Source: Amoebophrya sp. A120 (taxonomy: Eukaryota > Protista > Dinoflagellata). Taken from it: a stretch of DNA of 64,000 nucleotides. The DNA is taken from positions 848,609-912,608 of the forward strand of contig CAJINV010000018.1 in the NCBI GenBank assembly GCA_905178155.1, written 5' to 3'. The notes under the pieces are model-generated. The model did not search any database. It saw nothing but the letters and a program-made list of their open reading frames with translations, and was not told the DNA's origin. Both the position numbers and the translations under genes were made by a program. Position 1 is the first letter of the stretch; each line of letters starts with the position of its first letter. Positions 186-64,000 of this stretch are shown here, piece by piece.

Positions 186-2432
186 CTAAATGCAAAGCCT
201 GCAAGTTAATGACTGTGATATATAAACTTTTTTCTCTCCATATCGTGATCCCAACATCACGTTCCTCGCCTCGCGAAAAATCCTCTCTTCCAGCATTTTA
301 TCCCGGCAGTCGAGAATGGCCATGCACCGGATGATCTGCACGCACGCAAGCCAATCCAGCTTCTCAAACTCTTTGATCGCTTTCACTTTGCCCAACACCT
401 GCACCAAAAGCGCGTCCTCGCGCCACCGCCACTCGGTGCAGAAGTACAAAATGTTAGACAGATTCCGCAAGTGCACCTTCGCTAATTTTGCGGACGGTTT
501 GTGGCAGAAGATGGCGTTGAAGCAGGCTGGGTGGGATAACTTCCTCAAAAATTCTATCAGTTCTAAAAACGTCCCCACCCCATAGGTGTCACACAATAAA
601 TTCTGCATGCCAAAAACGTTTCTCATGCGCAGGCCCATGAGAAGTAATTTCCAGTCGTGTTTTGGAATTTGTTATGCTATAATCAGCATGCTAAGCTACC
701 TCTGTGATGCTTCCGAACTAGCTGAACAGGACTACAATACAAGGACGGACTTGTCATGCCAAACAACCAAAGTTGGCTGATTTGTCTAGCAGATTTCCGA
801 TCGTGTTGCTGATGTGGGGACGTTTTTACTCAGGATAAATTCCTCCGCAAAGGGAAAGACCAGCCGTTCCTGGTCGCTGTCTGGCAGTTTCGCCATTCCG
901 TACAGAAAACTTCCGACATCGTGACAGTTCCAAAACAGGGCAGGTGGTTCTCGGGCGGCTACAGGCGTAGTGGCAGGGACAGTTGGGCAGCTGGCAACAA
1001 CATCACCGCTGCTTTGCGACTGCGATTCCGAACAAGAATGTGAGGACAGATCACTATCGCGCTCGCCATTAACAAATCCCGGCGACTTTCCTGGTTCGAG
1101 AAACGAATCAGTGTCCTGACCGAGCACTGCTTCCCGGCCTGTTGTCCTGACCGGCCGTTGTCCTGACGGAGCACTGCTTTCGTCCGACAGACCAGAGCCT
1201 CCGCTTTCGGAAAAATTGTCGCGCTCGACGCAATTATCCGCACATTTGGACGACGAGTTTTTATCAGTATCAACAGCATCAATCTCCGGCACGAATAGCA
1301 TTTTCACAGCGAACTCGAACCCTTCCTTCGCCAGGTCGAGGGGTAAAATCCCCCTGCCGCCGAAGGACGCGATGACGTTTGTGAACTCACGGCAGTGTGC
1401 TGGCTCCTTCAGCTGGTCCCAACGTTTTTGCAGCAATCCCTCCATTTCACTGAAAGGCAGATGCAGCTCCGCGCTGGCCGCCGCGGTGAGGGAGCACACC
1501 AGGTCGGTGGGCCGGGCGTGCGGCGAACGCCAGATTTCGTAGAATGTGTCTTGTAATGAAGAGACTGGCGCTGGGCCTCGGGAAATCAAGTCGCCACTGG
1601 TATTGTGGCTTATTTTCTGAAGACCCTTGCCTTCGTTCATGGTTCTTCTTGTAGAAGGCGAGTCATTTTGATTGTTCTGATGGTTGGCGGGGACAAAGGC
1701 TCCTGCTCCGCCTCGTCGTCGCGCTTCTGCTTTGCTCGCTACCGAGCCTTGTTTCTTTCCACCGCCGCCGCGTACAGCTGCGTCGTGGAGCTTGTCCAGC
1801 AAACATTGCACCTCCGGGTGCGCCGTTTGCTCCGCAAGAAACTCAGACGTGTGTTTTCGTAGTTCTGCGGTAGGAACTACGCCTCGGTGCTGATGGGCAG
1901 GTCTTGAAGATGTCGCTTTCGTTTTGATGTTCGTCGACGAGCTGCGAGAAGCGCACTTCGTTGGTCCGTCTCCCCCCGTTGAAATGGAAATCGACACACG
2001 AGAGTTAGGACAGCCAAACACTTGGCTCCTCGTCCTTGGGCCTTTCGCTGCTGCCGCAGGAGTGGCTATTCCCTCTGGGGGTACAACAACTTCGACAGCC
2101 GCGGAGGAGAAACCCCTCGTTGTTCTAGTAGTGAATCCTGCTTGTTCTCCTGGTGATGAATTTACAACGGTTGAGGAACTCCACGCAAGGTGCCCCCCCT
2201 GCAACAACTGACAGTTACAAGCTGTACTTCTACAACAGCTGACCCGATGCTGAAAAACTCCCCCTCGGACTCCGCTGGTGTTGTATAGCTGCAAAAGCCG
2301 CGCAAGGAAGAGGTCGACATTTTTGTATGCATACTGCTGCAGTGCTGGTGCAACCACTGTTGAGTATGTCCTCGATGGATTCATCATCCCGCACGGACGC
2401 CGGGCCTCTCGGTGAAGCGGCTGCAGGCTCAT
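186..2432 (-). CDS. Uncharacterised protein, possibly organelle-targeted helical-repeat (RAP/HPR/OPR-like); split by introner 555-837; both ends uncertain
   Basis: ORFs 786..2498 and 186..554 join in frame (AEEF|LRKL) after removing the element plus the aattc TSD; Arg/Ser-rich N-terminus; helical segments DVGSFLYGMAKL, LRNLSNILYF, LACVQIIRCMAIL. Confidence 0.55.
555..837. mobile_element. Introner family D
   Basis: TAT..ATA ends; TIR AAAACGTCCCCAC / GTGGGGACGTTTT; TSD aattc/aattc. Confidence 0.9.
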
Positions 2433-5646: not shown

Positions 5647-8417
5647 TTACAACGGATACCCGGCCGGTCGTAAATCTCCCGGGTACCCGATCCACCACTC
5701 GAACCCGTCTGTATTATCTCCAACCATTTGAATCCGGTTATTTCCATCTTCCCGAACGTTGGAGATCCTGAAGTGAAAGTCCACCAGTTGCTTAACATCT
5801 GTCTTGCTGTTCCAAACGGTAATTTTGTCACCCTTCTCGCTGTCGGAATGCTCAATCTCCCAGTCCCGCCAGGACGTGACTCGGTCTTTTCCCAAGTCCC
5901 CGGAGCTGTAGCGCCCCTTCCGGTAGATGACGTTTTCAATCACAAACTCCCGGTAGTGCTGCATGGGCGTGTAGATATGCACTAACGCTGGGCAAAGGTC
6001 GTCGCAATAGAGGCCGGACAGCTTCCAGTTTCCGATCTCCTTGTCCGGTGCGAACGCCCAGTCGCTATTGTAAGAATACGATGCTCCGATGATCGCCGAG
6101 GGAAGCGCTTCTTTATCCCAAGACTTAAACCTCGTGTGCAGAATCGTGATGTCTTTCGCGTTATCAAATGCAAAAATGTCTGGGTTTGGAAGGGTGCGCG
6201 GTTCGCCATGCAGCTTTTCCATGACCCATGAGGTCTGGAATGCAGCACCTAGCATGACAGATTCTGCGCGATCTCTCTCATGCCTATCCTGCATGAGAAA
6301 CTCCCGACCGACTTGGTCAAAACTGGCCGAGTTTTGGTAATCATGCAACACAGATTTTTGCATGCTTCAGATAGAGCATGACAAGTAGCATTCTTCCAGA
6401 CGCAGACCCAGACATTTTTACATTTGATACGCGTACACGTTCTGCAGGTTTTGCGGCGCCCAGCCCATCTGGAACACCGGGTCGTTCGGGCCTTTCCACA
6501 CGGAGATCCGCTCTATCAAAAGGAAAAATCCCCCCTCCCCAAATCGCAAACGAACTTTGTGATGCTGTATTTGAGTACACAAGTCGACTTGTAATGCTAG
6601 AAGGCCAAGAGACGCAGCTGTGGCCTCGTTTGCAGGCACTTTGTCATGCTGTTTCCCACTTCCAGCTGCCCTCTGTCGTGCTGAAGACGCAAGGCTTTCC
6701 CACGCCAACCAGCACTACAGTCCGCATCTTTTCCCTTCTAGCATGACAAAGCTGACTTGTGACCACAAATCTGCATCACAAATTTCTAGTTTGAGTATGG
6801 GGTGGGGGGATTTTTCATTTTGATACGCTCGTACTGAATGTCCGAGTGGTAAGTTTTCAGCCCGTCGTCGTTCGTGTGCACCAGACTGTCCTTGAACACA
6901 CTGCCCGGGTACAGCGTGAGCCCGTCGGTCTGCAAGAACCAGCCGCCGACTTGCTTGTAGTCCGTGGCGAAAATCTTTGGCTCGTTGTACATGTCGTGGG
7001 AATTAAACGGCGGGTCGGTCATGGTCACCCCGTGGAGGATAAAGGTCTGCTGCCCGGGTGAACCGTTCCAGGATTTCCACATGCGCAGGGACGCAGCGTC
7101 CGACTTCACACTCTCGTAGGATCTGTCGGGATTCGCCTGGTACACGTAATCAGACCCGGTCAATACCCCGTAGCCCGTCGCCGCGTAGGTCCCATTCTCC
7201 TCGGCGTATTGCCAGTGAACCGCAGATTTCACGTACGCCCAGTGCGCGAAGTGCACCCAGGCTTGGGATTCCGTCAGCGTCATGTGGTTTTCGCCGCGTT
7301 TTCCAGTTTTCCCTTGTCGGTTTGTGTCCATCCAGTAGACACCCGGGGGGAAATAGAGAACTTTCTTAGCGGATTTGTAGTTGTCCAAACTGATCGGGCC
7401 GGGTTGCATCACGAGAATTTCGTTCTCTTCGTAGACGGAAAAAGGGTCTTTCTCCCGCTCCAGCGGCGGCGAGACGAAAAGAAACAAGACATGTTTCGGC
7501 TCCCGGCCGACAATAGCGCCATCGGCCGCTCGGAAAACGATTTGTGACTCAATATCGTCGAACTCGATGGAGATTTGCCGGATCTTGGGGTTGGCCTTGT
7601 CGAAAGGGATCAAAAGCTCGATAGAATTTTCGTCAAGCGCTTTATCCGTGTTGACGACAATGTCCTCGTTGTTGAAAACCGGTTTGACGTGGCAACTGCT
7701 GAACCACTTTTTCAAATCCACCCCAGACTTTCCACCATCCCTGGCCGTGAGTTTCACCTTGATCGTGTTCTTGTAAACGATCTGCGTATACGCCATGGTC
7801 TGCTGTTTCACCAAAGCATCTATCCCATCGTCATCTTTCCCCGTAGGGATTCGGTCCAAAGGCCAGGGCCGTTGCCAGTCCCGGGGTCGTTGAATTTTCC
7901 CCTTCCCGCCGCGCGGAAGGGTCTCGAACACGAAAGATGGCTGCTCATCGACAGACACTTTCCAGTGTAAGGACTCCCGGACGAAGTCTGCCCGTTTCCA
8001 TCCGTCCCAGCTGTAGTCCGTCCGGCCGTTCGGCGGTTTGGGTTGTACGCAGAAGTCCACGTCGGGGGACAGGCAAAGCGACGTGTCCTCGGGAGCAGTC
8101 GGCGGGCGGACAATAAGTGGCATTTGCCCTCCAGGTTGAGGTTGTTGCAGTTTTTCTTTTTCATCTTCGGGATTCTTGACATTGATGAGGACTGAAGCAG
8201 TTTTACTACCAGGATCCACCTCAGGGCTCTTCTTTTCCTTTCCTCCAGGAGTGGTCGGCGCCCCACCTAATTCTTTCGTCGAAGAAGTTGTACCCGCGAT
8301 TACACCCGCCTCGCCGCTACTCGTATTAACCCAAGTGGACGAAACGGGAAGACCACATACAGGATCAATTAAATGTAAAAAGAAAGAAAAGATAAAGTGT
8401 GTTGCAGGGAACATCAT
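5647..8417 (-). CDS. Secreted glycoside hydrolase family 49 (dextranase/isopullulanase-like), 3 exons
   Basis: Signal-like MMFPATHFIFSFFLHLI; motifs LYFPPGVYWM, YKQVGGWFLQTDG, HTNDDGLKTYHS; splices restore QYE|RISVWKGPNDPVFQMGW and NVYA|KDITILHTRF. Confidence 0.85.
6162..6429. mobile_element. Introner family B
   Basis: TIR TATCAAATGCAAAAATGTCTGGG; TSD cgcgt/cgcgt. Confidence 0.95.
6514..6825. mobile_element. Introner family D variant
   Basis: TIR TATCAAAANGAAAAATCCCCC; TSD cgctc/cgctc. Confidence 0.9.
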
Positions 8418-17355: not shown

Positions 17356-17510
17356 TATGAACTGCAAAAGTATAAGTATCGTACTCGTAGTATTGCAATA
17401 GAAATTACCAAAGCATGCCAAATGGGATTTCTCATGCTGATTTAGCTTGGCGAAGAAATTTGTCTTGCATGACTGCGATTAGTACGAGTACGATACTTTT
17501 GCACAGGATA
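17356..17510. mobile_element. Introner family A, outside any recognised CDS
   Basis: Family A TIRs; TSD aaatt/aaatt. Confidence 0.85.
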
Positions 17511-44738: not shown

Positions 44739-47700
44739 TTACTTATCCTTCGGCAGCTCCAAGATCTTCCCGATCCCCACCGTTTTTCCCTCGTCCCGTA
44801 AGGTGAAGCGACCCATCTTCTCGCAGCCCTTAAAGCTGTCCAGAGCGGCTTTCTGGTCCAAGGTGATAATGCAGGTCAGAATGTCGTTCACCTTTGCGCG
44901 CTATGCACTGTAAACAAATCGATCTGGTGCTCATGGCTCAGGAAGAACAATGCAAACTTCCACTTCGTTGACAACTACATGACAACTCAGAATGACACAA
45001 AAATCTGTTTTGCATCAGCAGCAAAAGATGACGTGGTTGCCTACAGTACACAACTTTGTCTAGTAGGAAACAACATGCGCGGAAGGAGAAAAAAGCACGT
45101 CCAACTATGTAAGGAATGCTACTTCTTCTGCTTGCCTTTATTGGCACAGCACGATCTTCATCGGAGGTTTTGCGTAGAATTTGCCTATGATTTTTCAAAA
45201 TGTGCATGACATCAAGTGAAATCTGGCAACCCTTCATCTTCCAGAACCTCCAGTCGATATTGTACAACTATTTGCCGTCGATACGAACTTCGGGTTCGGG
45301 GTTTGCTTTTTCTTGTTCGACACAATCTGCACGGTTTCCACCAGTTTCGTGATTTCGCAATCTTCAATCGCAGTGTGGAAGTGGATCACGCAGCGGTACC
45401 TGTAAATTTGAAAATGACCCGCTTGAGTCCCTTTCGCGTTGCAAGTGCAACCACTAATAAGGAAAAACATCAACTTTGTACGACGCGGCAAAATCTTGTA
45501 CGACATCTAACCACTTCTGCTGATGCATAATTACAGCAATTTCAAATGATGTAAAAATTGCACTTCTACTTAGTGGACATGGAAAATGACTATCGTAACT
45601 ACCCCGCGGTCAAGATGGGTCGCTCTTCCACCAACTCGATGATTTTGAACTGTGCCTTGAACTTTATCACGGCCCTGGCCGGTTCCTTGACGGGACAGAG
45701 CACGAACCCTTTTCGCATGTCCTCCTCGGACACCCCGCCGGTAATCTTCACCGTGACAGACTCCCCCACTACCGCGTGGCTCACTTCCTCCTCCCCAATG
45801 AAGACGGACACCGCCGTGCAGGTTTTCCCCGTGGGTTGGATCAGGCACTTCATGCCCGGCAGAACTTTCCCCTGTTCAATTTTGCCGATCGCCATCAAGG
45901 ATCCCATGTCCCGGTACCCATCCAACATGGGCATGCGCAGCGGGTCGGTGGTTTTTGCGTGAGCGGCGATGTTGAGCTCGTCGATGGTGTCGAAAAAGGT
46001 TTTCCCCGTGTACCAAGCCGGAGTCCCCTTGCGTTCCTTCAGGTTGTCGCCATTCAGTCCGGAGATAGGAAGGTAAATCACCTATATGGATTGTTCCGGA
46101 CGTCGTGAGAGAGTGGAAACAATATACAACATTTGGAAGGTGGAAAAATCGCAGGGGCACAAAGCCGTGACACGACGAGGACAATGCAAAAGATAAAGAA
46201 GTTGCACATCTGAAGTAGTTATGCCACTGCAATTCTATATTCCACAGCAGAATGAATGAAAGCCACTACAGTAGCTCTACTTGCGCGATCGTGTCTACTT
46301 AATACGTACAAGCACAAAGTGGCACAACATTCCTGTGCCTTTCTTACGTTATTCATGCAGATGCGACGCCGACGTCGCTGATGAAATACTTACGTGCATA
46401 ATTATCTCGATCGACTTTTACTCAAATACAGCAGGCAAGCCTAGAATTTACACGTCTACCTCAACCCCAGCACTCAATTCTAGTTTTAAAATTTTATAAT
46501 GAAAAGTATCGATAGTACCTGGTCCTCCTTGAAGCCGCAGGTGCTCTTTAAGAAAGGTTTCATCTTGCCGCAAATCTCGTCGTAGCGTTCCTGCTCCCAG
46601 CCCACACTGTGGTCGTCCATTTTATTTACCGCGATAATCAATTTATCCACCCCCAGGGTCTTTGCGAGCACCGCGTGTTCGCTGGTCTGCCCGCCCTTCT
46701 CAAACCCCGTCTCGAATTCACCTGGTCGTGGAGCAATAATTGCATTCATCTATCGTCCTGCTTCCTCTTACATTCCTTCTACACAAACAAGACAAAAACT
46801 CGAACGTCAACTTAAAGAAACTTTCGTAACTCTCGTGAAGAAGTAAGTAAGTACTTACTATACCTTTTCTTGCGCTGATGATCAAAACCCCGATGTCAGC
46901 CTGACTGGCGCCCGAAATCATGTTTGGTACATAAGACTTGTGACCTGGTGCGTCCAGGATGGTGAAACGTTTGTTCGTGGTGCAGAACTGCGCGCGCCCC
47001 ACTTCCACCGTCTTCCCCTTGGCTTTCTCCTCCTCACTGGTATCCATAATGTAGGCCAGAAACCAACTGTCGCGGTTTTTGTCCTTCGCCTCACGCTGGT
47101 ACCTGTGGTCAGGATGGGTGGAAAACTGTACTTTGCAAGTTTTTTGAAAAACAGAAATGCAAATTGTCATGCTACATATAGGAATAGGTGGAAAGCAAGG
47201 AAAGTATTACACCTGTCACGATGCATATGAATCAAATCGCAACCTAGTACTTTTCAATCGTTCGTTCGTCCACGTAGCCCGTCAAGTAGAGGATGTTCCC
47301 GCACGTTGTGCTCTTTCCCGCGTCGACGTGGCCGATAAAGACCATGTTCATGTGCGGTCGGGGATCCGGGTCCTTGACGGCCCCCGCCGGCTTGGCGACT
47401 ACTGCCTCCTCCGTTTCTGCTGAGGCTGCGTCGTCCGACTCCGCGGGCGAACTGAGGACTTCCTTCTTCGGTGCCGCAGGGCTGGGACTGCCCGTCTTCA
47501 GCGGCTTGGTTTGTGGTTCTGCGGCTGTTGATGCAGCTGCTGGAGGCGACGTGGCAGCGGGTGCTGGTGCTGGGGCCTCCTTTTCTACTTCTACCGGCGC
47601 CGCGCTCTTATTTTCCTTGGGAGAATTCGAAGGAGAAGTTGTGCTCTCCGCCTTGGCCGCGGGGCTTGGGCTCTGTTTAGTGGTCTGCGCTTCCTTGGCT

Positions 47701-50330: not shown

Positions 50331-50907
50331 CATTCCCCCAGAACGCAGCGCCGACCACAAGGCCGGTTTTGAGCTGACCACAGGTGGTTCGATGTTGTGG
50401 GTCGCGCAAGGGCTGTTGAAGGCCACACAATCGCCCGACCACACAAAATCGATTTCGCAGCTTCCCAGGTCCGACAGAATCGAGCGGCCGCGTGGCTCAA
50501 TATCGAGGCGGTGCGCCACGCAATCCGCCGGGCCGACGGACTAGGGGGGAGAGCTTCCAGCTATGCGCTTTAGCGGATCTCCCACAAAATCGATTTTGTG
50601 CGTCCGCCCTTTCTTCGCGGATGCAGCCTCCCACGCCAAGGCCTTACCAACCCCCGCCCCAGCCCGCGCCCTATGAGGTACGGGCAACGGGCCCTACCGG
50701 CCACAAAATCGATTCTGCAGCCCCTCAACCCTATGGACAACGTCGGCACCTTGCCGGACATTAGATCTTCCGGAGAGATCTGGACTTCCGGAAAGATCTC
50801 GGGAGATCGCTGCGGTCCGGATTTTCCGACTTCCGGAAAATAGAGCTTCCGAGAAAATAGCAGAAAATCGATCTTGTGCCTCCATTACTATTCAATAGTA
50901 GCGGGAT

Positions 50908-51328
50908 CGGACTAAACCTGGCCCATACCATCGGCGGAGGCAGTTGCTTACTATCCAGTTGGTAATCTGCTGCCAAAAATCCAAAAAAAATCCGAAGGCA
51001 GTCGCGCTCGAGGTGTCGCACGCAAAAATCTGAGCTGTTTTGTGTTGCGTCCCGAGCAAAATAATAATTACTATTGAATAGTAACCAACTGCCTCCGCCG
51101 ATGGTATGGACCAGGTTTGGTCCGTCTCCGTTACTATTGAATAGTAACTCGCGCGCACTTTTGGCGCATTTTTGGCGCACACTCGGGCGCACTTTTGGCA
51201 CACAGAAAATGGACTTTGAAGCGCCTCCGAATCTCTTGAAAGTGCAAGCGTTCGGATTTTTGGCAGCAGATTACCAACTGGATAGTAAGCAACTGCCTCC
51301 GCCGATGGTATGGGCCAGGTTTGGTCCG
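50908..51328. repeat. 75-bp inverted repeat (50908-50982 vs 51254-51328)
   Basis: Arms are reverse complements with about 1 mismatch; partial third copy near 51086-51125. Confidence 0.9.
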
Positions 51329-53871
51329 TTCTCCTTAGCAATGAAGCAGAAAATCGATTTTCCGACTCGATTTTCGATTTCGAGGACTTGCTGATGTCCC
51401 GATCTCGATTTTCGATTTCGGAAAATTCCGGACTTTTCGCAAACTCCGGACTTTTTGAAATTTCCGGAATTTCCGGAACCCGGAAAGTCGATTTTTCGGC
51501 AGTCCCGGAAAGTCCAAGCAACGCGTGGACTTCCGGAACACTTGCTCCTCTGGATTTTCAGGAAGTTGGAAAATCGATTTTGACAAACAGCCAGACAGCC
51601 ACCTGCCTTAGCCACATAGAAGGCCCGCGCCACCTCTTTTGCCCGCACCACCACTGCCGCGGACATCGCACAAGGAGCGGGCCAACAAAATTGATTTTGC
51701 GCGCCTCGGGTGATTGAACCCGCAGACGATTCTGCGAGCCTGAAGCAACTAAAGTCCCCGGCTCTGGGCCCCATCAAGCGCCCAGCGGCTGTCGAGGACT
51801 GAGCCGCGGCACCCACCGAGGGCTGTCTGTTCACAAAATCGATTTTGCGACCCCCGCGCCAGCCGAGAGCCCGTTCCTGGCGCCTCTACGGAGCTCAGAA
51901 CACGCAGACGGGGCCCATGCCGCTCCCGCGGCTTTTCAGAACTTGGGCCCGGATGTAAGAAAGTCACAAGCTCGGGCGTTTTTCATTGGTTTCTACGCTG
52001 GGCCAACGCGATGAATGTGCGGAACTTCATCTGGGCGCAAGTTCTGGAGTTCGCGATCATCCCTAAGCCTGTAGCGTGCGAGCGAAACATCGATCCAAGG
52101 CGGGCAGAGGCCCGTCCTCTGCGACTTCGCCCCACGCAATCAATTTTGCAGCTTTTGCCGGAATTTCCGGCTTTTGTGTTGGTAAAATCGATTTTGCGAA
52201 CACGCGCGGATTGTGTGGCCCCGCCCGAGGATAGGGCATCTTCGAAAAGCGTGCCCGAAGGGTGCGCACAAAATCGAATCTGTCCGCGGGTACTCACAAA
52301 ATCGATTTTGTGAGCACCACCCGCCGGGCGGAACATGACAACCCGGCGCCCCCAACCCGGCTGCGGGAATCTTTCTGGCAGCCCGGACGCTCCAGGGTGG
52401 GGCCTAACGCCTCAGGACACCGGCAAAAACTGCCGCGAGACCGAGTTGGCGCATTCTCGAGCTTCGAGAACGCGGGCAACCGACTTCGCTTCGCGCTACT
52501 TTGCTTCGCTTGTGGACGTTAGCAGCCGCGGCACAAAGTCGATTTTTTGCGGCGTGCCTGGATTTTTTGCGGATTTTTTTCCGATTTTCTTAACATTTTT
52601 GAAGTCGGTCCAAATCAGTACTAAGATTTCTGAAGTGAAACGAAACATGAGGACATTATGTGGCACAGTTCACTACAACTAGAACTACTAGTATGGTCAG
52701 TCCATAAAATACAGATGAGTTATGCTCTTTCTTCGATCTTCAGTAGCATTTTTTCAGCAGGAAGCTTCGAGTCGCTTCATCATAGTGGAGCTTTCATTTT
52801 CGGCTTATCTCCGTTCGGACAAGATCCTTCGGTTGCTTTTTCTTGCTACGTAGATCCTTTAAAGGAGAAAGCTCATCAAAAACAAAAACGGATCTTTACT
52901 TTCGTATAAAAAACAGATCATCGCAGTGCGTTGTAATATTAATATTCAGGCTGTTACAAAGGCCCTGCGAGGCTAGCCGCAACAACTCAGAAAGACACTT
53001 CAGATCAACTCGTATGTGTCGTTCCACAGAGTATTTGAATTCACCACGTGTTTTTGAAATAGTCAACGTGAAGCACGATTTTGATCTCTTCGTCTTGCAA
53101 CAAAATTGCAACGTATCTTTTGGATGCTGAGTCTCTACGAACACAACATGCACAGGGGCAGACTCGCACTCCCTCATGACCACGAGCACTGGGTACGACA
53201 CCTCTACAGTGTCCCAAGGAAGTTTCTTTCTTGCCGGATGGTCCTGCGAAACACTAAGACGCCCGAAACGCAACAAACTTTGAACCATTATGATTTCCTC
53301 TTCATTTTGGCAACTTATAATGCCCGTTTCATCTCTATGGCCCTCACGTGTGTCACGATCTGACTCGACGTCACCCGATCCAAAGACCACCTCAACTGCT
53401 GTGTGAATTTACTTTGAAACTGTGTCAACCTCGCCTTGTATCGAATAAAAATAAACTGTGAAAATCTTTGCCTTGACAAATCACTATACCTATACCTGCT
53501 GCTGTATCGAATAAAAATAAACTGTAAAAACGCTGAACCTCCGTACTAATCCTAAAAAACGCAAGATCGCTGAGGTAGTGGTCTTCGAGGGTGAACGGAT
53601 CCTGTGAAGAGTACGCGGTGCAAAGAAATACAGCAACATCGCAAACCACCAAAAGCTGTCATTCAAAAAACATTTGTAGATTCCTGTACTAGGGATTGCT
53701 CTAGCTTGTCAGCGTTTCTTGCTCTTAGTGCTGTGGTCTAAGAAAGTACGTACAGTAAATATATTTGTCTTCCTCCCACCAAACTGAAAATTCCTTTACC
53801 GATATAATTCTACATACTGAACTAATTCTGCTGTCCTTGTTGCTGCACCACCATCAACGCGGACCGCCCTC

Positions 53872-56800
53872 CTACACCTTCATGCCCTGCAGGAACGACT
53901 TTGCCTCGCCGAGGGCTTCGATTTCACCAGTCATGTGCTCCTGTCGGATGTCGATATCAACTGCAAAAATGTCTGGGTGTGGGTCTGGAAGATTGCCAGG
54001 TTTGTAATGCATATCTTGCATGGCCCATGATGCCTGTGATGCATGATTTAGCATCACAGATTTTCGAAGCGCTTCCTGATGCCTATTCCGCATGAGAGAC
54101 GCCCTCTTGGCATATTTAAGAATCGGACTCCTCTTGCTGGTCATGCAACACATATTTTTTTGGAATGCGAAGACAGCATGACAAACCTTCCATTCTCCCC
54201 GACCCAGACATGTCTGCATTTGATAGTCGAAGTTATCGAACAAAAACTTGCAGTCGTCCTTCCACTGCTTCAGCTGCAAGTCCTCATTGTACTTCTCGTC
54301 CATTGTGAACTTCTTTTTTTCCGTTTTCGCCTGCAGGTCCTCTTCCGCTGCGGCCTTCTCCTCGCGAAGCTGCGACAAAAACGCTTTCTTATCCTTAATG
54401 GATTCTTATGGATGGGAAAAAAACTGCGGTCTGATAGTTCATCTTTCTTTTGTGTGCGTCCTGTGGTCGGTGTTTTTCTTAAAGTTAAAATCGACCGGCT
54501 TCCAAGCGATATGGATATTTTCATTTGCCTTGCCGAAGAGACCACAGATGCAAAATCCCTCGTGGTTCTCGCGCAGAGATGAGTATACTAAGCGTAAGCA
54601 TCACTGCCGTGTTTTCAACATAAAAAACTAAAACACTGCGACACAGTTATGTCGCCCTGCTCAAGATTGTAAGTACGCACGAAATCTTATGAGCACATAC
54701 AAATAGTCCACACCCGGCTGCAAATGACATATTTAAAAACCAGCATCAGACACACATGTTTTTTTCCCCCTCGATAGCTCATTTGCATCCTTTACGGCCT
54801 TTTCGTATTCCGCCTGACTGGCCTTCTCGTTCTGGATGCGAACCTCCGCGGACTTCTCCGTGTCTGCGATGATGGTGGCAATCATGGTCATGACCTTGTT
54901 GCCCCCCGCGGACTTGGCGTAGGTCTTGAATTTGGGCTGGTCGGCCCTGGCCTGCAGCAACAGCTTCGCACCGTACACCTTTGCGAGCACTTCCTCCGCC
55001 TTCTTCAACACCTTGATGGAAGCTTTCTCGTCCGCGAGCGCAGGCTATGAGAGTGCACAACTCCCCTTCCAACACCAACTCATACATTTGTATAGCACGA
55101 GCTGCAACTACCGCAGCAATGCTATGCCACGAATGTAGGTTTTGCATGACAAGTCCGGACATGGGTTGCAGTGCTATTTCTTGGGCGTCCAAAACTTGTC
55201 ATGCGCAGAGTGCTTTCAAAAGCACGAGGTGGGTTCGGTATTTCGCATGACAAATGAGGGGGAGAGGAAGTTGCGTACTCTCATATGGCCTGGTAGTCCG
55301 CGTTCTCCTGGGCCCGGATCTCGGAGAGCTCCTTCAGTTCCGTCTATCCCACGAAAAAAGTGTTACAGTTACACATTTGTAGTCAATTCAGCAACACAAA
55401 TTTCTCGTCTGCATGTAGTGCAGAAATCGTAGGGGAAAACACCTATGAAACGGGGCTCCTATGCATATCCGGCACGACAAAGGTTGCCTGTCTTGCTTGT
55501 TTCGCAACACAATGTGTAACTGTAACACTTTTTTTTGCAATACCTTCTCCTCCTTCTCCAGCGCTTCGGTGGTCTCGTCCATGGCCTGCTCAAGCCCCTG
55601 GATTTTGATCTCGAGCCGCTCCTTCGCGGCGTTCAGGTTGTCGATATGCATTGCAAATATGTCAGGATCTGGAAACTTGTGACGCAAGGCACGGAATAGT
55701 GAGCACATCGTAATGCGCTACCAAGCATGACAAGTTTTTCCGAAGTACTACGTTGCGTATCCCGCATGAGAAACTTCGTTTTTGCATAGCAGGCAAGAGA
55801 AACCCTTTGCGATGATTGGCAACACAAAGTCCAGAGTCATGCCAGACCAGCATGACAAACACAGATCTCGCATTTTCCCCGACCCAGACGTCTTTGAATT
55901 TGATAGTCGATATCCGTCTGCAATTTTGTGACCAGCGTGGTCCGGTCGTTGATCTCGGTGGTGCAGGTATCTTTTTGTTATCCACAGGAGAAAGTTTCCA
56001 GTGCGCAACGCTGTACAAATGCAGTTTCTGCATGAAGTGTTTCTCTCTGAACCATATACCTACCCGCCATTCGGCATGACAAGTGGCCTGCCTTCATGTA
56101 TGTTGTCGAAATTTGAAGTGCATTTTGTACGTCGTGTACGGGAAGAAAGTAAATTCGCATCGCATATTTGCTTCACGTCGTCTGCCATTTGCTTCTTAAT
56201 ATCCGCTACCAGGGCGTCGATGGCGGAGATGACCGGTGCAAACGCGTCGGCCTTCACCTTTTGCGCCAGGATCAGCAGTGCCTTGTTGGCGTATCGCTGT
56301 CCCTATCAAATGCAAAAATGTCTGGGTCTGGAAAAATCCAAGATTTGTCATGCATATTTATCATGACCCATGATGCCGGTAATGCATGCCCTAGCATCAC
56401 AGGTTTTTTGAGGGATTCTTGATGCCCATTCCGCATGACAAATGCCCTCTCCGCGTAGCAAAAATTAGATTCCTTTTGCTGCTCATGCAACACAAATTTT
56501 TTAGACATCGAAACGCAGCATCACGAGGTGCATTCTTCCAGACCCACACACTTTTACATTTGATAGCCCGGCCCGGCGGAGGATCTTCTGTGCCTCCGAG
56601 ATGCGCTGTTCCCGCTGTGGGATTCTCAATTGTTACATTCTCAACTGTTACAGGAATTTGTCATGCAGAAGCACCATCATCATCCTCACGATCAAGCTGC
56701 TCCGCATGACAAATTTGGCAAGGCCTAAACCGCGCCTAAATCTGTGCGGAATTTGTATGCTACAGGTGCAACCTTCCCCCTTGTACTTTTCCAATTCTTG

Positions 56801-59491
56801 CATCACAAGCTCATGTAACAGTTGAGAATGTAACAGTTGAGAACGCCATACCCGCTCCTCCAGGGCCGAGGACGACGCGGCTCCCTGCAGCTGCAGAAAC
56901 CCGAGGGCAATGCACTGCAAAAGCATCCTACTAGTAGTATAAACGCATTACAAATTTCACCAGCATGAGACATAAAATTTGTAATGCTGATTTACCCCAA
57001 GAAAAAGATTTGTAACGCATGACTGCAATACGAGTACGATACTTTTGCACAGGATAAGGGCGCGCCCGAACAGCGCGTGAGCCTCGTCCGAGTTCAGGAA
57101 TTCCAGCGCCTTGCCCACCGCGGCGATTTCCTCCGCGCGGGCCTTGGTTCGCTCCTCAAACTCCGCGTCCGCAAGGGTGCACGTCTCCGTTGCCTCGGCC
57201 AGCGTGGTGGTGTCGGCCTCGATATAACAATGCACAACTCCCCCTCCCCCTCATTTGTATATTAGCATGAACGTCAATACACGCATCAGCAAGAATGCCG
57301 GTTTTGCATGACAAATTTTCACTGGAGCAGAGCGCTATTTGGGCTGCCAGAACTTGTCATGCAAACAGTGCCAAGAGGCAAACGATGGATTGGGTATTTT
57401 GCACGACAAATGAGGGGGAGGACGTCGAGTTGTGCACTGTCATACTCGAGGCCCGCCTCGCACAATGCCTTCTTCGCCGTGTTCTCTGCGAGCATTTTCA
57501 TGGCGTCGGCCAACTTTTCCTTCTCCTTCTTCAACGTGGCTTGGTCCTGTCATATATATGTGGATTTCGGGTTTGATGCACATTTTTTGGTCTAGAATCA
57601 AAATCGATAGCCGCAGTGTAACTACAAGCATTGTAAATTAGCTGCAGTTCTTCAGGGTGAAACAAGTAGCTGAAACTGCAGTAAAAATGCAGATGAAGTA
57701 AAAACACATCTATTTACCTTTGCGATCATCTCTTCTTTCATCTTCTTCTGGGCCGCAAAATTCTCGAGCGCTGCTGCTTCAGTTGAGTATGGCGGGGAAA
57801 GATGAAAACCGTGTGGTGTTGTCCTGACTATGGTCGCGTCGCAGCTGGATACGCCTACAACAGAAATTTTTGACGATGAAAATGTCAGCATTTGCAGTTT
57901 GCATCATCATGCCTGGATGGGGTGCTATCAGCGGACACGTCATCGTCGATGCAAAAACAATCCCCAACCTACGTCGAGGACAACTACACCGAGTTTACTA
58001 TTCTCTCCCCTTCCATATTTCCCGCGACTCTTTCAAATCTGCGGTGAAGGTGTCGAGCATGTTCTCGAGAATTCCAAAAATTTCACCGCTCTGGGAGGAA
58101 TACGCCGAGAAAGTTGGCTGCTGCAGAAAGTCCTGTACCGACTCGTTCTGCGACTCGGACAGCTCGTTTGAATTATGCAATGCAAAAATATAAATATCGG
58201 GCAAGCGTAGTCCACATTGATTTTGCTTCACACGCTTGTGGTGATCTACCAAAATCACATGGGAATATCAAAAGCGGTTTTCATGAAAACTTGTCATGCT
58301 GTGACGCAATGCTTGGTACTACGAGGCACGATAGTTTTGCTCAACATCTTCATACTTATGCCTCAGCTGCAGCAACCTGACGGATTTGGACAGGGTTTTT
58401 TTCACTGTCATCAAGACACCGGTGGCGGAGTCTTCCTGCAGAAAGCTGTTGTGCTTTTTCAAAACAGTGAGTGCGGACTTCAGTGCGCCAATGGCCTGGA
58501 TCATCTCCTTCTCTTCGGCCGAAAAGGACGCGAGTTCCTTCGCCCGCATCTCCGTGGCCTCCTCCAGCGCTGCGGAATTTCCCTCGATGGCTTTCTCTAG
58601 GGCTTTGATTTCCGCGCCGGCTTCGGCCTGTCGCCCCGTAGCGGACTCGATGTTGGCGGTGGACTGTGAGATGCAGGCTTTGTTCGCCTCGATGCTGGCT
58701 TTGGTGTCTTATGGCGTTCTCAACTGTAGTTACATTTTCAACTGCTACATGGATTTGTGATGCAAGAATGGGAAAAGTGAAAGGGTGGAGATTGCACCTG
58801 TAGCATTACAAATTCCGCACAGATTTAGGCGCTGTTGAGCCCTAGGCAAGTTTGTCATGCGAAGCAGCTTGATCGCTTGGATGATGATGGTGCTTTTGCG
58901 TGACAAATTCCTGTAACAGTTGAGAATGTAACGTTTGAGAACCCCATATGTCTTTCTTCGTGGTTTTGCACCAGCAGTTCATCTTCTTGTACGTGGCTTG
59001 GTCTTCTTCGCCCTCCGTAGGTGTATGCATTGCAAAATAAGTATCGCACTCGTAGGAATTATTGCAATGACGCATGAAAAAGTTTTCTTTTTCGAGTAAA
59101 ATCAGCATGACAAACTCTTGTCGTGCTGAGCTAATTTGTAATGCAATAACTGCTAGTACGATACTTTTGCGATTCATAAACGAGCTGCGTCTGCATGTCC
59201 TTCAACAACTTGATCACTTTCGACACGGGCTATGCATTGCAAAAGTATCATCGCAGTGGTAGTTGTAAATGCCATATCGCATGACAAGTCTCCTTCCTTC
59301 AACTCAATCGGCATTACAACATCTTCTAAAGAAAATATTTTTTGACAAAATTTGTGATGCGACAGCTGCTACTTCTATACAACTTTCGCAATGCGTACAG
59401 GCCTTTCCTTCTTCAAAAACGTAGCAGCGGTGGTGGACAAAAAGGATGCGAGGAGAACGTGGGCCGTTCTCCTCATCCTGCAGTTCCGCAT
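53872..59491 (-). CDS. Secreted long coiled-coil protein of a dinoflagellate-type family, carrying 14 introners
   Basis: Signal-like RTAHVLLASFLSTTAAT; ERPVSKVIKLLKDMQTQLVTEGEEDQATYKKMNCWC; SQSGEIFGILENMLDTFTADL; FEERTKARAEEIAAVGKALEFL; CKFLFDNFDIRQEHM..EIEALGEAKSFLQGM*. Confidence 0.85.
53955..54225. mobile_element. Introner family B
   Basis: TSD gtcga/gtcga. Confidence 0.92.
54407..54776. mobile_element. Old introner, distinct family
   Basis: TIR TATSGAKGGGAAAAAAAC..GTCTGAT; TSD decayed; removal gives DANE|SIKDK. Confidence 0.7.
55046..55285. mobile_element. Introner family E
   Basis: TIR TATGAGAGTRCRCAACT; TSD decayed; frame restored on removal. Confidence 0.85.
55345..55542. mobile_element. 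Introner family G
   Basis: TIR AAAAAAGTGTTACAGTTACACATT; TSD ccgtc/ccttc. Confidence 0.85.
55645..55905. mobile_element. Introner family B
   Basis: TSD gtcga/gtcga. Confidence 0.9.
55979..56166. mobile_element. Introner, F-like and diverged
   Basis: TSD tttgt/tttgc; removal gives VKQ|KDTCTTE. Confidence 0.75.
56304..56565. mobile_element. Introner family B
   Basis: Family B TIRs; flanks gtccc/gcccg. Confidence 0.88.
56616..56850. mobile_element. Introner family C (left end TGT)
   Basis: TSD cccgc/cccgc. Confidence 0.9.
56909..57056. mobile_element. Introner family A (left end AAT)
   Basis: TSD agggc/agggc. Confidence 0.9.
57223..57444. mobile_element. Introner family E
   Basis: TSD ctcga/ctcga. 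Confidence 0.9.
58174..58354. mobile_element. Decayed introner
   Basis: TAT..ATA ends; removing it plus 5 nt gives RHK|NELSES. Confidence 0.6.
58710..58948. mobile_element. Introner family C
   Basis: TSD tgtct/tgtct. Confidence 0.92.
59024..59178. mobile_element. Introner family A
   Basis: Family A TIRs; TSD decayed; removal gives QLV|TEGEED. Confidence 0.85.
59231..59397. mobile_element. Introner family A, diverged
   Basis: TAT..GTA ends; TSD cgggc/caggc. Confidence 0.8.
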
Positions 59492-60396
59492 CTTTAGGCC
59501 TGCTACCGGAGTGTTATCGATCCTAGACACGGCACTACAACTTCCAATGGAAATTTTTTTGGACTGTGTTTTTTCGAGACGCAAAAGGCGCAATATGATA
59601 TATCGTAATGATGATGATGTTGGCAGTGTGCCCTTTAGCGGACTGCTGCGTGCTACTCCCTCCTCCAGCCCGAGAGCAGCTGAACCCCGAGAGCAGCTGA
59701 ACGCCGATCGTAATTCTAATTTGAAAATAAAGCAGCACCGAAATATGCTTGAAACGACAACGGCGTTTTCGGGTGGCTCCACTACAGCCGATTTGGGAAG
59801 CTATGAAAAACACGTAGTGGATCCTCATCGACCTGAGACTGCAGCGCCAACGCTACCAAAAAAGTAAAATTCATGAAAAAAGGAAGCACCTGGCGTTTGG
59901 CTTGACCGACCGAGGGAGGTAACAACACGACGAGAGGCACAAGGTCCTCGCAATCCGTAAGCAGAACACGAAATACCACAACAAATCGAAATCTTTGTCA
60001 GGCGCTCCATGCAGAACAACTCATTTTCATGATATGATTTGAGCGGAAAAAAAGTTCTTCTTCATCGACTTCATCGAACAGCTCGGAAAGTTTTTAGAAG
60101 AAGTGGCGATATGGGAAGTAAATGGAGGTAAAGCCAGACGTCAGTGCCTTCCCTCCACCACTGCTCATCGTGATCAGAAACCAAAGGTCGCCTGACTCTC
60201 CCTGAGAACTTACGATCCAGGTGCGCTCCTGTTTCTGGATGAGGAAAAGTTGGGCGACGATGCAAAAGCTGCCGAATTGCTACCGAAAAGGCCCGCAACA
60301 TGCGAGCTCGGGCTGCTTACCCCTGCACTGGGTTTCGCGTTGTCCGTCGCTTTGTTTGTTTTTTTGCATTCCACTTCGTGATTTCCGACGAAGCCA

Positions 60397-60883
60397 TCAG
60401 GCGCCGAGCTCCACGTAGTGAACCACCGACGACGAGCCCGGGCAGCTCCAAGCTCCGCTGCCGCCTGACGCAATAGGGTACCCGGGGCACTCGTTTTTCG
60501 ACAGCTTGTCAACACAAAAACCGTGGGCCTTTTCTTCACAGCTGCCCGCTCGAGTCATACTAAACTCCTTCCACTCACTACCGCACAGGCAATTGACCTT
60601 TTGGCCGGCAGAAGCAACAGCGCCTCCGACAGCAGCAGCAGCAGCTACAGTAGCGAGGCCCAGTGGTTTTTCCTTTTCCAGCAGCCCGCCCGCGGCGCCA
60701 TCACTCCCGATCACGACCTGCTGGGCATCATCCTCGGGCTTTTTCGCCTCTCCATTCGCGGAAGCAGCCGCCTCGTCGGAAAACTCGGTCTCACTGGGGG
60801 GGGGGCACTATCCCTCGCACTGAGGACGACGCGAGAAGCACGGCCGAAATCAACAGCTTTTTTAAAATTTCGAACGCCATCAT
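60397..60883 (-). CDS. Small secreted Cys-containing protein, frameshifted at a 10-nt G/C homopolymer
   Basis: Signal-like MMAFEILKKLLISAVLLASSSVRG; with 9 rather than 10 C the frame reads VPPPSETEF... into the 6-Cys ORF ending at 60397. Confidence 0.55.
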
Positions 60884-61534
60884 TTCAATTTCTCGGATCG
60901 ATTCGTCTTTTGTTGAACCGACTTGGACGGCCGGCTGGCCGTTTCGCAAAAGAGAAGCTACGTCCTCTTGTCGTTGTCCTCGGAACGGAATCAGCAGCAA
61001 AAAATAACGACAGCCTATTCTGGGAGTACTAGTCAAAACGATAAAGAACGCTACTTCGTACGAAAACCTAGCAGACCCGGAAGAACAAGATCCAACGAGA
61101 AAATGCTGTGTGTCTGTCAAGAATAAGACGCATTCGCCTTTCGCTTTCCTCCTAGTTTTCGATGGATTGGTATATTTCTTTTCTGCTTTTTTACCATCCC
61201 AAGATAGACCCGCCTGCGGGCAGCTTGTCTTTTTTCAAAACCCGGGTCATTTTCCGGCAGATAAATCCTCACCTTCCTTTTCTTCTTCTTGGAAACAAAG
61301 AGTTGCAAACGAGCTTCTTGGCTAGGAGCAGCTCTGCAAAATGAAAATCTGCTCCCGTGGAAAGAGCATGCAGAAGTAACCCACCTTTTCTGAGAAACCA
61401 AAAGCTAGAAACTGAAACTGTGAATACGCAAAGCTTCCTTCCCCTGTGTCACGACGACTGCTTGAAAAAAAACCTGCCTTATAATTCCTTCAAACAGATA
61501 TATGTTGACCTCCTACTTCTCGTCCCTGTCGCGG

Positions 61535-64000
61535 TCACCGAAACAGCTCTGGCACCGGCGCGGACACGTACTTGCTGGGCATGTGCGGCTGCAAGTGATC
61601 GTATCCGGGAACGTAGGGCGTGATCACACCAAACGCCCCATGAACGCACGCGTGATTTTTCATCCCGGTCGTTGCGCTCCCCATTCCGTACCCCATTCCC
61701 GCTTCCCGTCGGCTGTACCAGAGATAGTCAAGGTGTCGCTTGGCCTCCTCCTTTTTCTCGTATTTGGTCAGTTTCGCGCTGCTCTCGATTTCGTAGATCT
61801 TGTAGAGACCGTTTTTGTCGTCGCAATTGTCCCGTAGATACTTTGACCGCAGGCAGCTGACGTGGTTGCAGTTGAAGTACGTGGCCGACTCGCCGTGCAG
61901 CGCCCGCCGCTGCAGCATTTCCTCGTACAGGAGCGGCTCTGTCGCCTGGATACTGCCGCCTGATTCGTCTTTCGGCTCGTTCCATATCTCCATGTTGTAC
62001 AGGGTGAGAAAGTAGAGCCCAAAGTGCACCAAGACAAGCAGGAACTTCACCTCCTGCAGATCCAGGTAGCCGACCCGGTCCCCAAAAATCGCCGCCACGT
62101 AGAGGATATGAACTGAAAAAGTATTGCATCGCATTCGTATAAATGCATTACAAATTTCCTCAGCATGAGAAATACACTTTGTAATGCGAATTTACCTTAA
62201 GAAAAAGATTTGTAATGCACGATTGCAATACGAGTACTATACTTTTGCACAGGATAGAGAATCTGGAAGAGGCAGAATCCCCAAAGCAGGAAGGCGATTT
62301 TGCACGAAGAATTGCTGGTGATCGAAGTCTATGAACTGCAAAAGGAGTACCTACTATCGTACTAGTTGAAATTGCAATACATCTTGCTCAGCATTACACA
62401 TGGAATTTGTCGTGCTGATTCAGCTCACGAGAAAAATTCCTCATGCATAACTGCAATATTAGTACGAATGCGATACTTTTACAGTTGATAGAGTCTTTGC
62501 GTACAGCCGGTTCGTGGCCAACAGGCAGAGGTAGTAGTGGAGAACCAGGACAAGCACCAGAAAGACCGACAAAAAACACACGTAATCCACGTCAAGTTGG
62601 TATCCTGTGCGAAAGATGCACGGTGATAGTTCTACTGACCTAGCGCTAGCGCATTGCAGCTGCACAAATTTTTTTTATCCTTATGCACAAAAAAATATCT
62701 CCGAACAATTTTTGCACAGGATAGACGGAGCCAGATGACGAAGGCAAACACCGTGACCAGGAGCGTGACGTACTTGGACGGGTAGTCGAACCGGGCGGGC
62801 ATGATGAGCCTCTCCGCCGACATTTTGCTGAAGCTACGGCTGTATCAAATGTAAAAATGTCTGCATCTGGAAACTTGTGATGCTGGGTGGCGTCTCATGA
62901 TGAGGCCACAAATGCTGGCGCAGCATGACAAGTTTCTGAGCTCCCGGATGTTGCCTATTCTGCATGACAAACTGCGTTTCTGCATGACGGAAAAACGGAG
63001 CTCTTGGGTAACGTGCATTACAGACTTAAGAGTCATGCCAGACAAGCATGACAAACATGCATTCTTCTAGACCCAGACACTTTTGCATTTGATAGGCTGC
63101 GGATCACGTGTTTGGCGATGTAGTTGGGTAGGAGAATGTCAAACAGCAGGTCGAAGAGCAGGACGGAAACCGAAATATCCTGTGCAAAAGCATCGCAATC
63201 GTAGCAATTGCAATTCTGCATTTACAAATCTCCATCCCAAGGCAAAACGGCATGACAAAGTCCATTTGTAGTCATGCTGAGGTTCTTTATAAATGCAATT
63301 ACTACTAGTACGATGCTTTTGCAGTTCATACGAGAACGGAAACAGCAGCTCCCACACTTCCATCGCTAGCAGTGCGTCCACCTGCTGACTCTCCGTCCGC
63401 GGGGTGCCGGCGGAGTTGGTGGCGACGACACTGTAGCCATCGTTTTCGTAGGCCGCACTCTGGGTTTCGTAAACCATGTCTTCGATCTTTCCCTGGCTCG
63501 CGATCCACATGCAGAGGAAATCGAACATGAGCATGGCAATCACGGCAAAATAGGTGACGACGAAAAAGACCAGGTTTCGCGTTTCTCCGGACGTGAATCC
63601 GACGGAGTCGATATCCTGAGTAAAAACATCCCCACCCCAGAGTTCTTATCATGCAGATTTGCAATTGCAGGAAGATTTGTAATGCGCACCCCCATGAGAG
63701 GCATTTCCAATCGTGTTTTGGAATTTATGATGCCGTAAACAGAATAGGTAGATGGGTTTGTGATGCGGTTGAACTTGCTAGACTGCACTACAATGCAGAA
63801 AGGAACTTGTCATGCGCGACTCCCAAAGCTTCTGGATTTGTGTCGCGAGATCCCCGTCTTGGCTCTGGTGTGGGGACGTTTTTCCTCTCAATAATCGAAG
63901 ATGTTCCCGCCCACCCGGATCAGCTGCATGGCCCCCACGGCGGGCACGAGCCCGGCGATCCAGTCGGTTAGCATGGGCATCTCGATCCCGGGGGTGCGTG
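61535..64000 (-). CDS. Polytopic membrane protein (TMC/OSCA/anoctamin-like C-terminal half); 5' part lies outside the window
   Basis: At least 6 hydrophobic segments in a continuous frame after removing 6 introners; FDYPSKYVTLLVTVFAFVIW motif; family assignment is tentative. Confidence 0.65.
62107..62256. mobile_element. Introner family A
   Basis: TSD gagga/gagaa. Confidence 0.88.
62330..62490. mobile_element. Introner family A
   Basis: TSD aagtc/gagtc. Confidence 0.88.
62601..62723. mobile_element. Introner, short A-like
   Basis: TATCCTGTGC / GCACAGGATA; flanks gttgg/gacgg. Confidence 0.8.
62843..63094. mobile_element. Introner family B
   Basis: TSD ggctg/ggctg. Confidence 0.9.
63176..63330. 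mobile_element. Introner family A
   Basis: TSD cgaaa/cgaga. Confidence 0.88.
63612..63893. mobile_element. Introner family D
   Basis: TSD gtcga/atcga. Confidence 0.9.

Follow-up and report, generated by a model that had tools for sequence, protein, structure and literature searches.

How can transposons land in conserved exons, at sites of any sequence, and still leave the transcript without the usual splice signals? The question is raised by a 64,000-nucleotide (nt) stretch of the dinoflagellate Amoebophrya sp. A120 (assembly GCA_905178155.1, contig CAJINV010000018.1, positions 848,609 to 912,608; hereafter the window), in which short inverted-repeat elements interrupt one gene after another. 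The elements are the A120 introner elements of Farhat et al. 2021 (PMC7789003) and are already known. That account describes inverted repeats starting with TAT and direct repeats of 3-5 nt, reports the splice sites as variable relative to the hairpin, and leaves the removal mechanism open, as it has stood since 2021. In contrast to those variable borders, the joints in the window follow one fixed and asymmetric rule, in which, on the transcript, the intron extends beyond the inverted repeat by 1 nt at its 5' side and by 4 nt at its 3' side. This register turns about two thirds of A120 introns from sequences without a signal into instances of one rule, corrects their annotation, and names the single bases U+2, A+3 and A-7 as candidate signals.

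The elements, their absence from RNA-like contigs and the cut register

Fifty-nine TAT..ATA elements with 5-bp target-site duplications (TSDs) were catalogued between positions 555 and 63893, in line with the roughly 55 transposon-introns that an earlier sequence-only reading of the window had proposed, and 58 of them lie inside minus-strand genes. The catalogue was built from a scan for TAT..ATA ends with terminal inverted repeats (TIRs), relaxed scans, RNA joints and one annotated protein; many of the statistics use 58 elements, the 59th (39571-39850) having been added through the mapping of the annotated A120 COPG protein. In the scan (TIR score of at least 8), 34 TAT..ATA matches had an exact flanking repeat of 5 bp and none had a repeat of 4 or 6-10 bp, whereas 61 of the 63 alternative start trinucleotides gave 0-3 matches, AAA gave 5 and TTT (as TTT..AAA) gave 19. 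The duplication is exact in 36 of the 58 elements, carries one mismatch in 11 and is decayed in 11. Lengths range from 115 to 1081 nt, and the elements fall into six clusters (18, 9, 7, 4, 4 and 3 members) and 13 singletons, which bears out the proposed minimum of six families; two of the clusters resemble one 260-nt family. Each cluster holds both orientations, and the interiors are unrelated, only the ends being common to the elements. The earlier description as palindromes with TAT..ATA ends and a 5-bp TSD stands for the duplication and for most of the ends. It does not stand as an absolute rule: 4 of the 59 elements have one change in TAT or ATA (all four are still removed or annotated as removed), and the elements are hairpins rather than clean palindromes, with a stretch at positions 4-7 that is often mismatched and where pairing is lowest. 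At positions 11-14, A is found in 40-50 of the 58 elements.

Long minus-strand frames open once each element plus 5 nt is deleted, and the three restored junctions given previously (TGAK/GQQ, NVYA/KDI and PEVI/KRW) were reproduced. Pfam searches on the opened frames identified GH49, kinesin, NAD-dependent epimerase/GDP-Man dehydratase, COPG, GTP_EFTU (eRF3-like) and PP2C domains, in agreement with the kinesin, COPG, eRF3, GH49, SDR and PP2C genes in which elements had been placed; one element (17356-17510) lies outside any coding span. Ordinary GT-AG introns occur beside the elements in the same genes, and the two named earlier (16047-16225 and 49112-49255) are real. The annotated A120 COPG protein (P0001) maps exactly, no residue being left over, on exons that nine elements and six GT-AG introns separate, and each element gap equals the element plus 5 nt. 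One COPG exon is 100% identical to this Amoebophrya sp. A120 protein, and the residues flanking most junctions on both sides are conserved in homologues.

Public sequencing runs (coded X1 and X3-X6) were compared, as contigs, with window positions 44001-64000 and 57900-64000. X3-X6 represent one sample, and their RNA nature, guessed by the tool, is backed by the coverage pattern: the contigs span exons but not the elements, and their depth drops almost to zero between genes; a poly-T end is seen in X6, and X3 is near zero on intergenic DNA. The DNA-like run X1 has a flat depth of 40-47x on unique contigs that run through elements (57386-58767, 58923-59637 and 62227-62895) and gives zero support for the nine joints listed. 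The sequence-only reading had put forward a comparison of DNA with RNA reads as a check; in the contigs compared here, elements are kept in the DNA-like and skipped in the RNA-like ones. Among the joints listed, those for 44001-64000 being taken from 15 of 795 rows, 19 of 19 remove the element plus 5 nt, as do two further joints deduced indirectly, the first from a loose end and the second from piece lengths. The ten joints in the 57900-64000 comparison are identical across all four RNA-like runs, and contigs retaining elements are shallow (depth 3 versus 161 in X4). Raw reads of two further runs with the same species label, X9 and X10, mapped only to a short repeat near 59624-59659.

The register can be determined because decayed duplications pin a cut that slides when the duplication is perfect. 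Keeping one base of the left copy of the duplication (plus strand) suits 21 of 21 joints, whereas keeping none suits 16 and keeping two suits 14; three joints (54403..54777, 55042..55286 and 58170..58355) permit only the 1 + 4 register. On the transcript the intron therefore reads N-UAU...AUA-NNNN. All window genes are on the minus strand, so element orientation was used in place of a test on plus-strand RNA, the mirror case being one copy. Two family-0 copies in one orientation (59024 and 59231) limit the register to at most 1, and the copy in the opposite orientation (62107) excludes the mirror value of 4. Opposite-orientation copies of one family agree, and the asymmetry therefore follows transcription, not the element. 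Sliding brings none of the 21 joints to GT-AG or GC-AG; among the 58 elements it yields GT..AG in a single case, in agreement with the earlier statement that most cannot be so shifted. The +1 base is spread over all four nucleotides (C16, G15, T14 and A13 among 58 elements). Because 1 + 4 equals the length of the duplication, removal recovers the original sequence of whatever site was hit, and an element inserted either way round presents identical signals through its inverted repeat. In Table S4 of PMC7789003, T occupies +2 in each of the nine leading non-canonical A120 motifs, as the register rule predicts, and the nine A25 motifs are all TT-NN. The sequence-only reading contained no such fixed, asymmetric register. 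In print, we found no fixed register, asymmetric constraint or branch point for these introns in a search that surfaced Farhat et al. 2021 and reviews restating it, and that lay outside figures (Fig. 3 and S19-S25 of Farhat et al., which possibly show part of the register), theses, bioRxiv supplements and most subscription papers.

The features are listed below in window coordinates.

555..837, minus strand: element in an unnamed 685-amino-acid (aa) open reading frame (ORF); exact TSD
6162-6429, 6514-6825, minus strand: two elements in the GH49 gene
10660-10809, 10848-11106, 12621-12770, 13090-13291, 13443-13678, 14229-14433, 14731-14966, 15325-15439, minus strand: eight elements in the kinesin gene
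17356..17510: element outside any coding span (untranslated region or intergenic); exact TSD
18085-19165, 19636-19874, 20279-20438, 20523-20682, minus strand: four elements in the epimerase/SDR gene
21971-22189, 22275-22535, 25854-25994, 26073-26234, 26654-26892, 26944-27223, 28647-28908, 29114-29349, minus strand: eight elements in a PP2C-bearing span, drawn by hand, which may be more than one gene
31437-31583, 31645-31799, 32871-33017, minus strand: three elements in an unnamed 507-aa ORF; 32871-33017 is the sole element slidable to GT..AG
36464-36613, 37080-37338, 37556-37790, 38319-38580, 38871-39265, 39571-39850 (5' TAC), 40134-40412, 40845-41003, 42106-42370, minus strand: nine elements in COPG, from protein mapping, each gap being element + 5
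44898..45284 (element 44902-45283), minus strand: decayed intron of the eRF3-like gene, with a joint deduced from the lengths of contig pieces
48438..48692, minus strand: element upstream in the eRF3-like gene; exact TSD
53951..54226 (element 53955-54225), minus strand: intron with an RNA joint; register range 0-5
54403..54777 (element 54407-54776), minus strand: intron with decayed TSD; RNA joint fixes the register exactly; ends CT..AA
55042..55286 (element 55046-55285), minus strand: intron; RNA joint fixes the register exactly; ends AT..CT
55341..57057 (elements 55345-55542, 55645-55905, 55979-56166, 56304-56565, 56616-56850 with 3' ACA, 56909-57056 with 3' ATT), minus strand: six introns with RNA joints
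57223..57444, minus strand: element in the same gene as the preceding six; absent among the joints listed and not counted as RNA-supported
57784..58018 (element 57788-58017), minus strand: decayed intron; joint inferred from a loose-end consensus in four runs
58170..58355 (element 58174-58354), minus strand: decayed intron with weak arm pairing; RNA joint fixes the register exactly; ends GT..TC
58706..59398 (elements 58710-58948, 59024-59178, 59231-59397 with 5' TAC), minus strand: three introns with RNA joints
62103..63894 (elements 62107-62256, 62330-62490, 62601-62723, 62843-63094, 63176-63330, 63612-63893), minus strand: six introns with RNA joints in a 436-aa ORF
16047-16225, 36720-36910, 37885-38205, 39307-39486, 40591-40781, 41091-41425, 41640-41919, 45400-45602, 49112-49255, 57547-57717, minus strand: control GT-AG introns, being the 10 of 14 hand-picked spans that read GT..AG as entered (the other four, off by a few bases, were left out)

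Bases kept at the element ends

A larger sample was obtained by scanning metagenome contigs with one element end, which gave at least 128 loci (L001-L128; 472 kb), of which the 80 listed share an assembly prefix. These loci have no unique sequence in common with the window, and empty sites were not found among them. Family models gave 385 full-length matches, 50 of them without a usable TSD or TIR, and 328 unique elements were left. TAT..ATA is read by 299 of the 328, with ends set without using that motif, and among these 299 an exact 5-bp repeat is present in 246 and an exact repeat of 4 or of 6 or more bp in none; target-site composition is flat, with no target preference. A family-free scan yielded 398 elements, 343 of which were given a strand by a codon model that was correct for 52 of 53 window elements. 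In these 343, the flank bases match the coding background, neither +1 nor the first base of the next exon is biased (p = 0.29 for the latter), G stands at +5 in 110, and nine read GT..AG at the register.

TAT or ATA is altered at one base in 25 of the 343 elements; two misregistered cases were dropped, leaving 23, and three further deviants have no strand. The changes number 0 at +2, 1 at +3, 9 at +4, 6 at -5, 7 at -6 and 0 at -7, an asymmetry within the pairs +4/-7 (p = 0.004), +2/-5 (p = 0.03) and +3/-6 (p = 0.07). With the window's four cases added, the pairs stand at 11:0 (p = 0.001), 0:7 (p = 0.016) and 1:8 (p = 0.04), respectively. The overlapping family-model set agrees (0, 2 and 10 changes at +2, +3 and +4; 6, 3 and 0 at -5, -6 and -7), one row having no strand and seven multi-change rows being left out. 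A-7, a candidate branch adenosine, is unchanged in 343 of 343 and in 58 of 58 elements while its pairing partner varies. A simple mutation bias is a poor explanation, since the two significant pairs lean opposite ways and A-runs and T-runs show no strand bias (30 versus 28). A constraint at the DNA level would be symmetric, and the plain reading is therefore that selection acts on the RNA bases U+2, A+3 and A-7; the counts suggest that base identity, not pairing, is kept at the element ends. Of the three +3 changes seen, two (L001:2455-2779 and L064:2654-2824) have G at +1, giving a GT start, a number too small to weigh.

The hairpin itself was assessed separately. Pair probability exceeds 0.5 in 22-44 of 57 elements, depending on position, and most young elements fold with their ends in register, for which reason the hairpin may help without setting the cut. 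In the window, G-U exceeded A-C on the transcript strand as a weak trend (78:56, p = 0.07), which was not repeated in 232 further elements (59:99, 122:159 and 192:197 over 12, 20 and 30 bases); the G-U comparison lends no support to selection on RNA pairing. Whole-element minimum free energy favours the transcript strand (37:20, p = 0.04; not composition-controlled). No sign of a selected U tract was seen, arm positions 4-22 being alike in the 5' and the 3' role. Among the five decayed introns with RNA support, one has a strong stem (54407, whose terminal stem is kept at z -4.2 despite TSD decay), one is marginal, and three (44902, 55979 and 58174) are removed although their arms pair no better than shuffles.

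Possible mechanisms of removal

The sequence-only reading had attributed the elements to RNA-level removal by a second, structure-directed pathway. Its first half stands: the elements are removed in RNA-like and kept in DNA-like contigs, without GT-AG, and the exon is restored exactly. Its reference to the non-canonical introners of Amoebophrya was also correct. The second pathway is not established, given the one-sided end mismatches, the lack of a G-U preference in the larger sample and the three of five decayed introns without significant pairing. The identity of U+2, A+3 and A-7 suggests that a relaxed spliceosome fits at least as well as a separate machine that reads structure.

We favour removal by such a relaxed spliceosome, with U+2/A+3 as its 5' signal and A-7 as its branch point, a reading to which we give about an even chance. 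Short non-coding transposons, probably mobilised by an integrase-type DDE transposase encoded elsewhere, would insert in exons in either orientation with a 5-bp duplication; the spliceosome would read U+2/A+3 as a stripped 5' splice site and use A-7 as the branch point in two-step branching chemistry; the position of the 3' cut would be counted off from the branch A, six bases downstream; and the hairpin would bring the ends together, replacing U1 and AG recognition. U1 small nuclear RNA (snRNA) is reported as not detected in A120 (Farhat et al. 2021, PMC7789003). Of the 10 local GT-AG introns, eight carry A at +3 and four start with GTAT; U+2 and A+3 are the remnant of the GUA start used by these eight. 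An invariant A near the 3' end has the typical look of a branch point. Besides the register, the Table S4 motifs and the end mutations, these two resemblances led to the preference. The spliceosome of tunicates, moreover, has been able to adapt to introns with TIRs and TSDs (PMC13326754; PMC11282704).

Several observations weigh against this reading. A spliceosome normally needs G+1 and a terminal AG, and both positions are free here: of the features of a U2 intron, neither the GT or GC 5' end nor the AG 3' end is present (only U at +2 and A at +3 are kept), G+1 is not enriched, and AG at the 3' end is found in 28 of 343 elements against a background of 6.2% (p = 0.14). A branch A just 7 nt from the 3' end is short, and A at -7 occurs in only 4 of the 10 local GT-AG introns. 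At L039, where the third +3 change lies, +1 is not G. The same asymmetry would arise with a base-reading nuclease, and euglenid hairpin introns with a similar offset geometry are described as leaving as circles, not lariats. The RNA evidence consists of contigs from one sample, of RNA nature guessed by a tool, in which no lariat, branch point, splicing factor or intermediate was observed; the raw reads of X9 and X10 did not map beyond one short repeat; and in L001-L128 the register was assumed from the window and the strand taken from the codon model.

In a wider form, which we hold tentatively and at somewhat below an even chance, the nuclear splicing code of A120 would be pared down to N-U-A where the intron begins plus a branch A lying six bases ahead of the 3' cut, and would place no demand on either terminal nucleotide. 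The 1 + 4 offsets would match the 5-bp stagger of the transposase, so that thousands of transposons could splice seamlessly at any site and in either orientation, and A25, with inverted repeats starting TTA and TT-NN introns, would share U+2/A+3 with a different offset of the inverted repeat. Should A-7 prove to be the branch point, a spliceosome can do without G+1 and a terminal AG; otherwise, the register describes what a nuclease and ligase act upon. Either way, the register accounts for the tolerance of target-blind transposons in essential exons.

The best of the alternatives, possible though on balance unlikely, is a separate non-spliceosomal machine, as proposed for euglenid and diplonemid non-canonical introns: an endonuclease would bind the base of the TIR hairpin and cut at a distance of 1 nt on the 5' side and 4 nt on the 3' side, and the exons would be joined by a ligase. 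The missing G+1 and AG biases, the registered pairs predicted in most elements and the strong terminal stem retained by the old intron 54407 speak for it, as do the arrangement in Euglena, where a paired motif is described with a fixed 5' spacer of 3 nt and a 3' spacer of 5-6 nt, and the reported non-detection of U1 snRNA. However, terminal pairs break on one fixed side only, the bases kept are those that a 5' splice site and a branch point would keep, the G-U trend of the window did not recur in the larger sample, and the decayed introns 44902, 55979 and 58174 are removed without arm pairing above shuffles.

A duplicated, specialised spliceosome, or a new snRNA pairing with both element ends, might instead work beside the ordinary spliceosome. 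The two intron classes in shared genes are sharply separate (only nine of the 343 elements read GT..AG at the register), Brr2, Snu114, Prp43 and SF1 are listed with two or three A120 copies (PMC7789003, Table S6), and Fritillaria is reported to use a duplicated U2AF (PMC13326754). Some factors, however, also have two Plasmodium or Toxoplasma entries in Table S6, and we regard this explanation as improbable.

Three explanations are left with very little weight. A hairpin flanked by direct repeats is a known substrate for reverse-transcriptase template switching, and only contigs derived from complementary DNA showed the joints, which might then be artefacts; yet three joints have no repeat to switch on and keep the same register, COPG requires the removals to match homologues residue for residue, and contigs retaining elements are shallow, so that we consider this highly implausible. 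Excision from DNA, somatic or programmed, is suggested by the transposon ends, by exact removal that restores the target site and by run kinds that are unrecorded or guessed. It is scarcely credible in view of the X1 contigs that run through elements and support none of the nine joints (contigs drop rare variants, and this evidence therefore bears on common, not rare, excision), of the intergenic near-absence of X3 and the poly-T end of X6, and of a 1 + 4 asymmetry that follows transcript direction. Self-splicing ribozymes can be dismissed almost entirely: group III introns likewise keep only U+2 and a branch A towards the 3' end (PMC3534033), but the unrelated interiors (115-1081 nt) share ends only and no local hairpin of domain VI type was seen, no Rfam search having been made.

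Related systems and other features of the window

The elements resemble the introners of PMC7789003 in the A120 genome they inhabit, in an inverted repeat of TAT followed by seven looser bases and an A run, in border direct repeats, in repeated families, in RNA-seq-supported removal without GT-AG and in genes that combine canonical and non-canonical introns. They differ from that account in a duplication of strictly 5 bp, the fixed 1 + 4 register and the strand-asymmetric constraint on U+2 and A-7. Nonconventional introns of euglenids (PMC12501133, PMC11282704) share paired ends, a likely origin from miniature inverted-repeat transposable elements, cuts at a fixed distance, a longer 3' spacer and coexistence with GT-AG introns; base-paired ends at a fixed offset from the cuts are found here too, weakly in three of the five RNA-supported decayed introns. 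The euglenid introns are described as N3-CDG...CHG-N5-6 sequences that lack A at -7, precede a purine at the start of the next exon and come out as circles, whereas those of A120 read N-UAU...AUA-N4 and show no exon-base bias.

The introns of Fritillaria borealis (PMC13326754, PMC11282704) are likewise transposons with TIRs and TSDs and are reported to be removed by an adapted U2 spliceosome; they have preferred ends, e.g. AG-AC and AG-AT, with U1 kept and U2AF duplicated, whereas both terminal positions are free in the A120 elements. Canonical introners of Micromonas, Aureococcus and Polarella (PMC12130899, PMC11282704) are also non-autonomous transposons that make introns on insertion, but carry or co-opt GT/GC..AG sites, whereas the A120 elements need no target sequence. 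IS3EU/GingerRoot transposons, which have an integrase-type DDE enzyme (PMC10045372), show similar TA..TA termini (compare TAT..ATA in 299 of 328 elements) and occasional TG..CA (one window copy starts TGT); their TSD is usually 6 bp, against 246 exact 5-bp and no exact 6-bp repeats here. An A120 introner family with TIRs and Copia/Gypsy-like ORFs is described in PMC12130899. By analogy only, group III introns of euglenid plastids (PMC3534033) have a similar minimal signature, U+2 with a branch A not far from the 3' end; they are organellar, start 5'-NUNNG with G at +5 and place a bulged A, with 7 nt behind it, in a local domain VI hairpin, whereas here the genes are nuclear, A-7 lies in a long-range stem and G+5 is found in 110 of 343.

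Within the window, the 41.9 kb of hand-drawn gene spans hold 58 elements and the 22.1 kb outside them hold one, which suggests targeting to exons or loss elsewhere, the catalogue being partly biased to coding sites. Family hidden Markov models run over the window added only one weak fragment. Intron phases by the longest frame are 28 (phase 0), 12 (phase 1) and 19 (phase 2), and in-frame read-through is possible for only 4 of 59 elements. A probable further element end lies at 243, cut by the window start, with similar sequence in L018, L033 and L124. Element 18085-19165 is a member of a 220-nt family grown to 1081 nt by tandem 10-11-mers and a duplicated segment, its flanks still matching element + 5. 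Element 38871-39265 exceeds its family by about 130 nt, and its insert (38951-39095), bounded by direct repeats of about 17 bp, resembles a nested insertion of a different type.

The GH49 (dextranase-type) gene at 5647-8417 has its two elements as the only introns found; the family is mostly fungal and bacterial, and the gene may be a horizontal gain. Between PP2C-like exons, 22700-25000 contains two GC-rich tandem arrays (units of about 20 and 120 nt) with internal palindromes. The block 49650-52600 is repeated and looks untranscribed, with a depth of 250-490 in X1 and near zero in X3 and a 12-base motif that is much repeated; inside it, 50889-51345 has long inverted repeats starting with TAT whose flanks are inverted rather than direct. 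Just upstream of a highly covered gene, 59607-59690 is common to many RNA contigs from other loci, which run off at 59608-59612 and 59671, and is a repeat shared by transcript ends or promoters.

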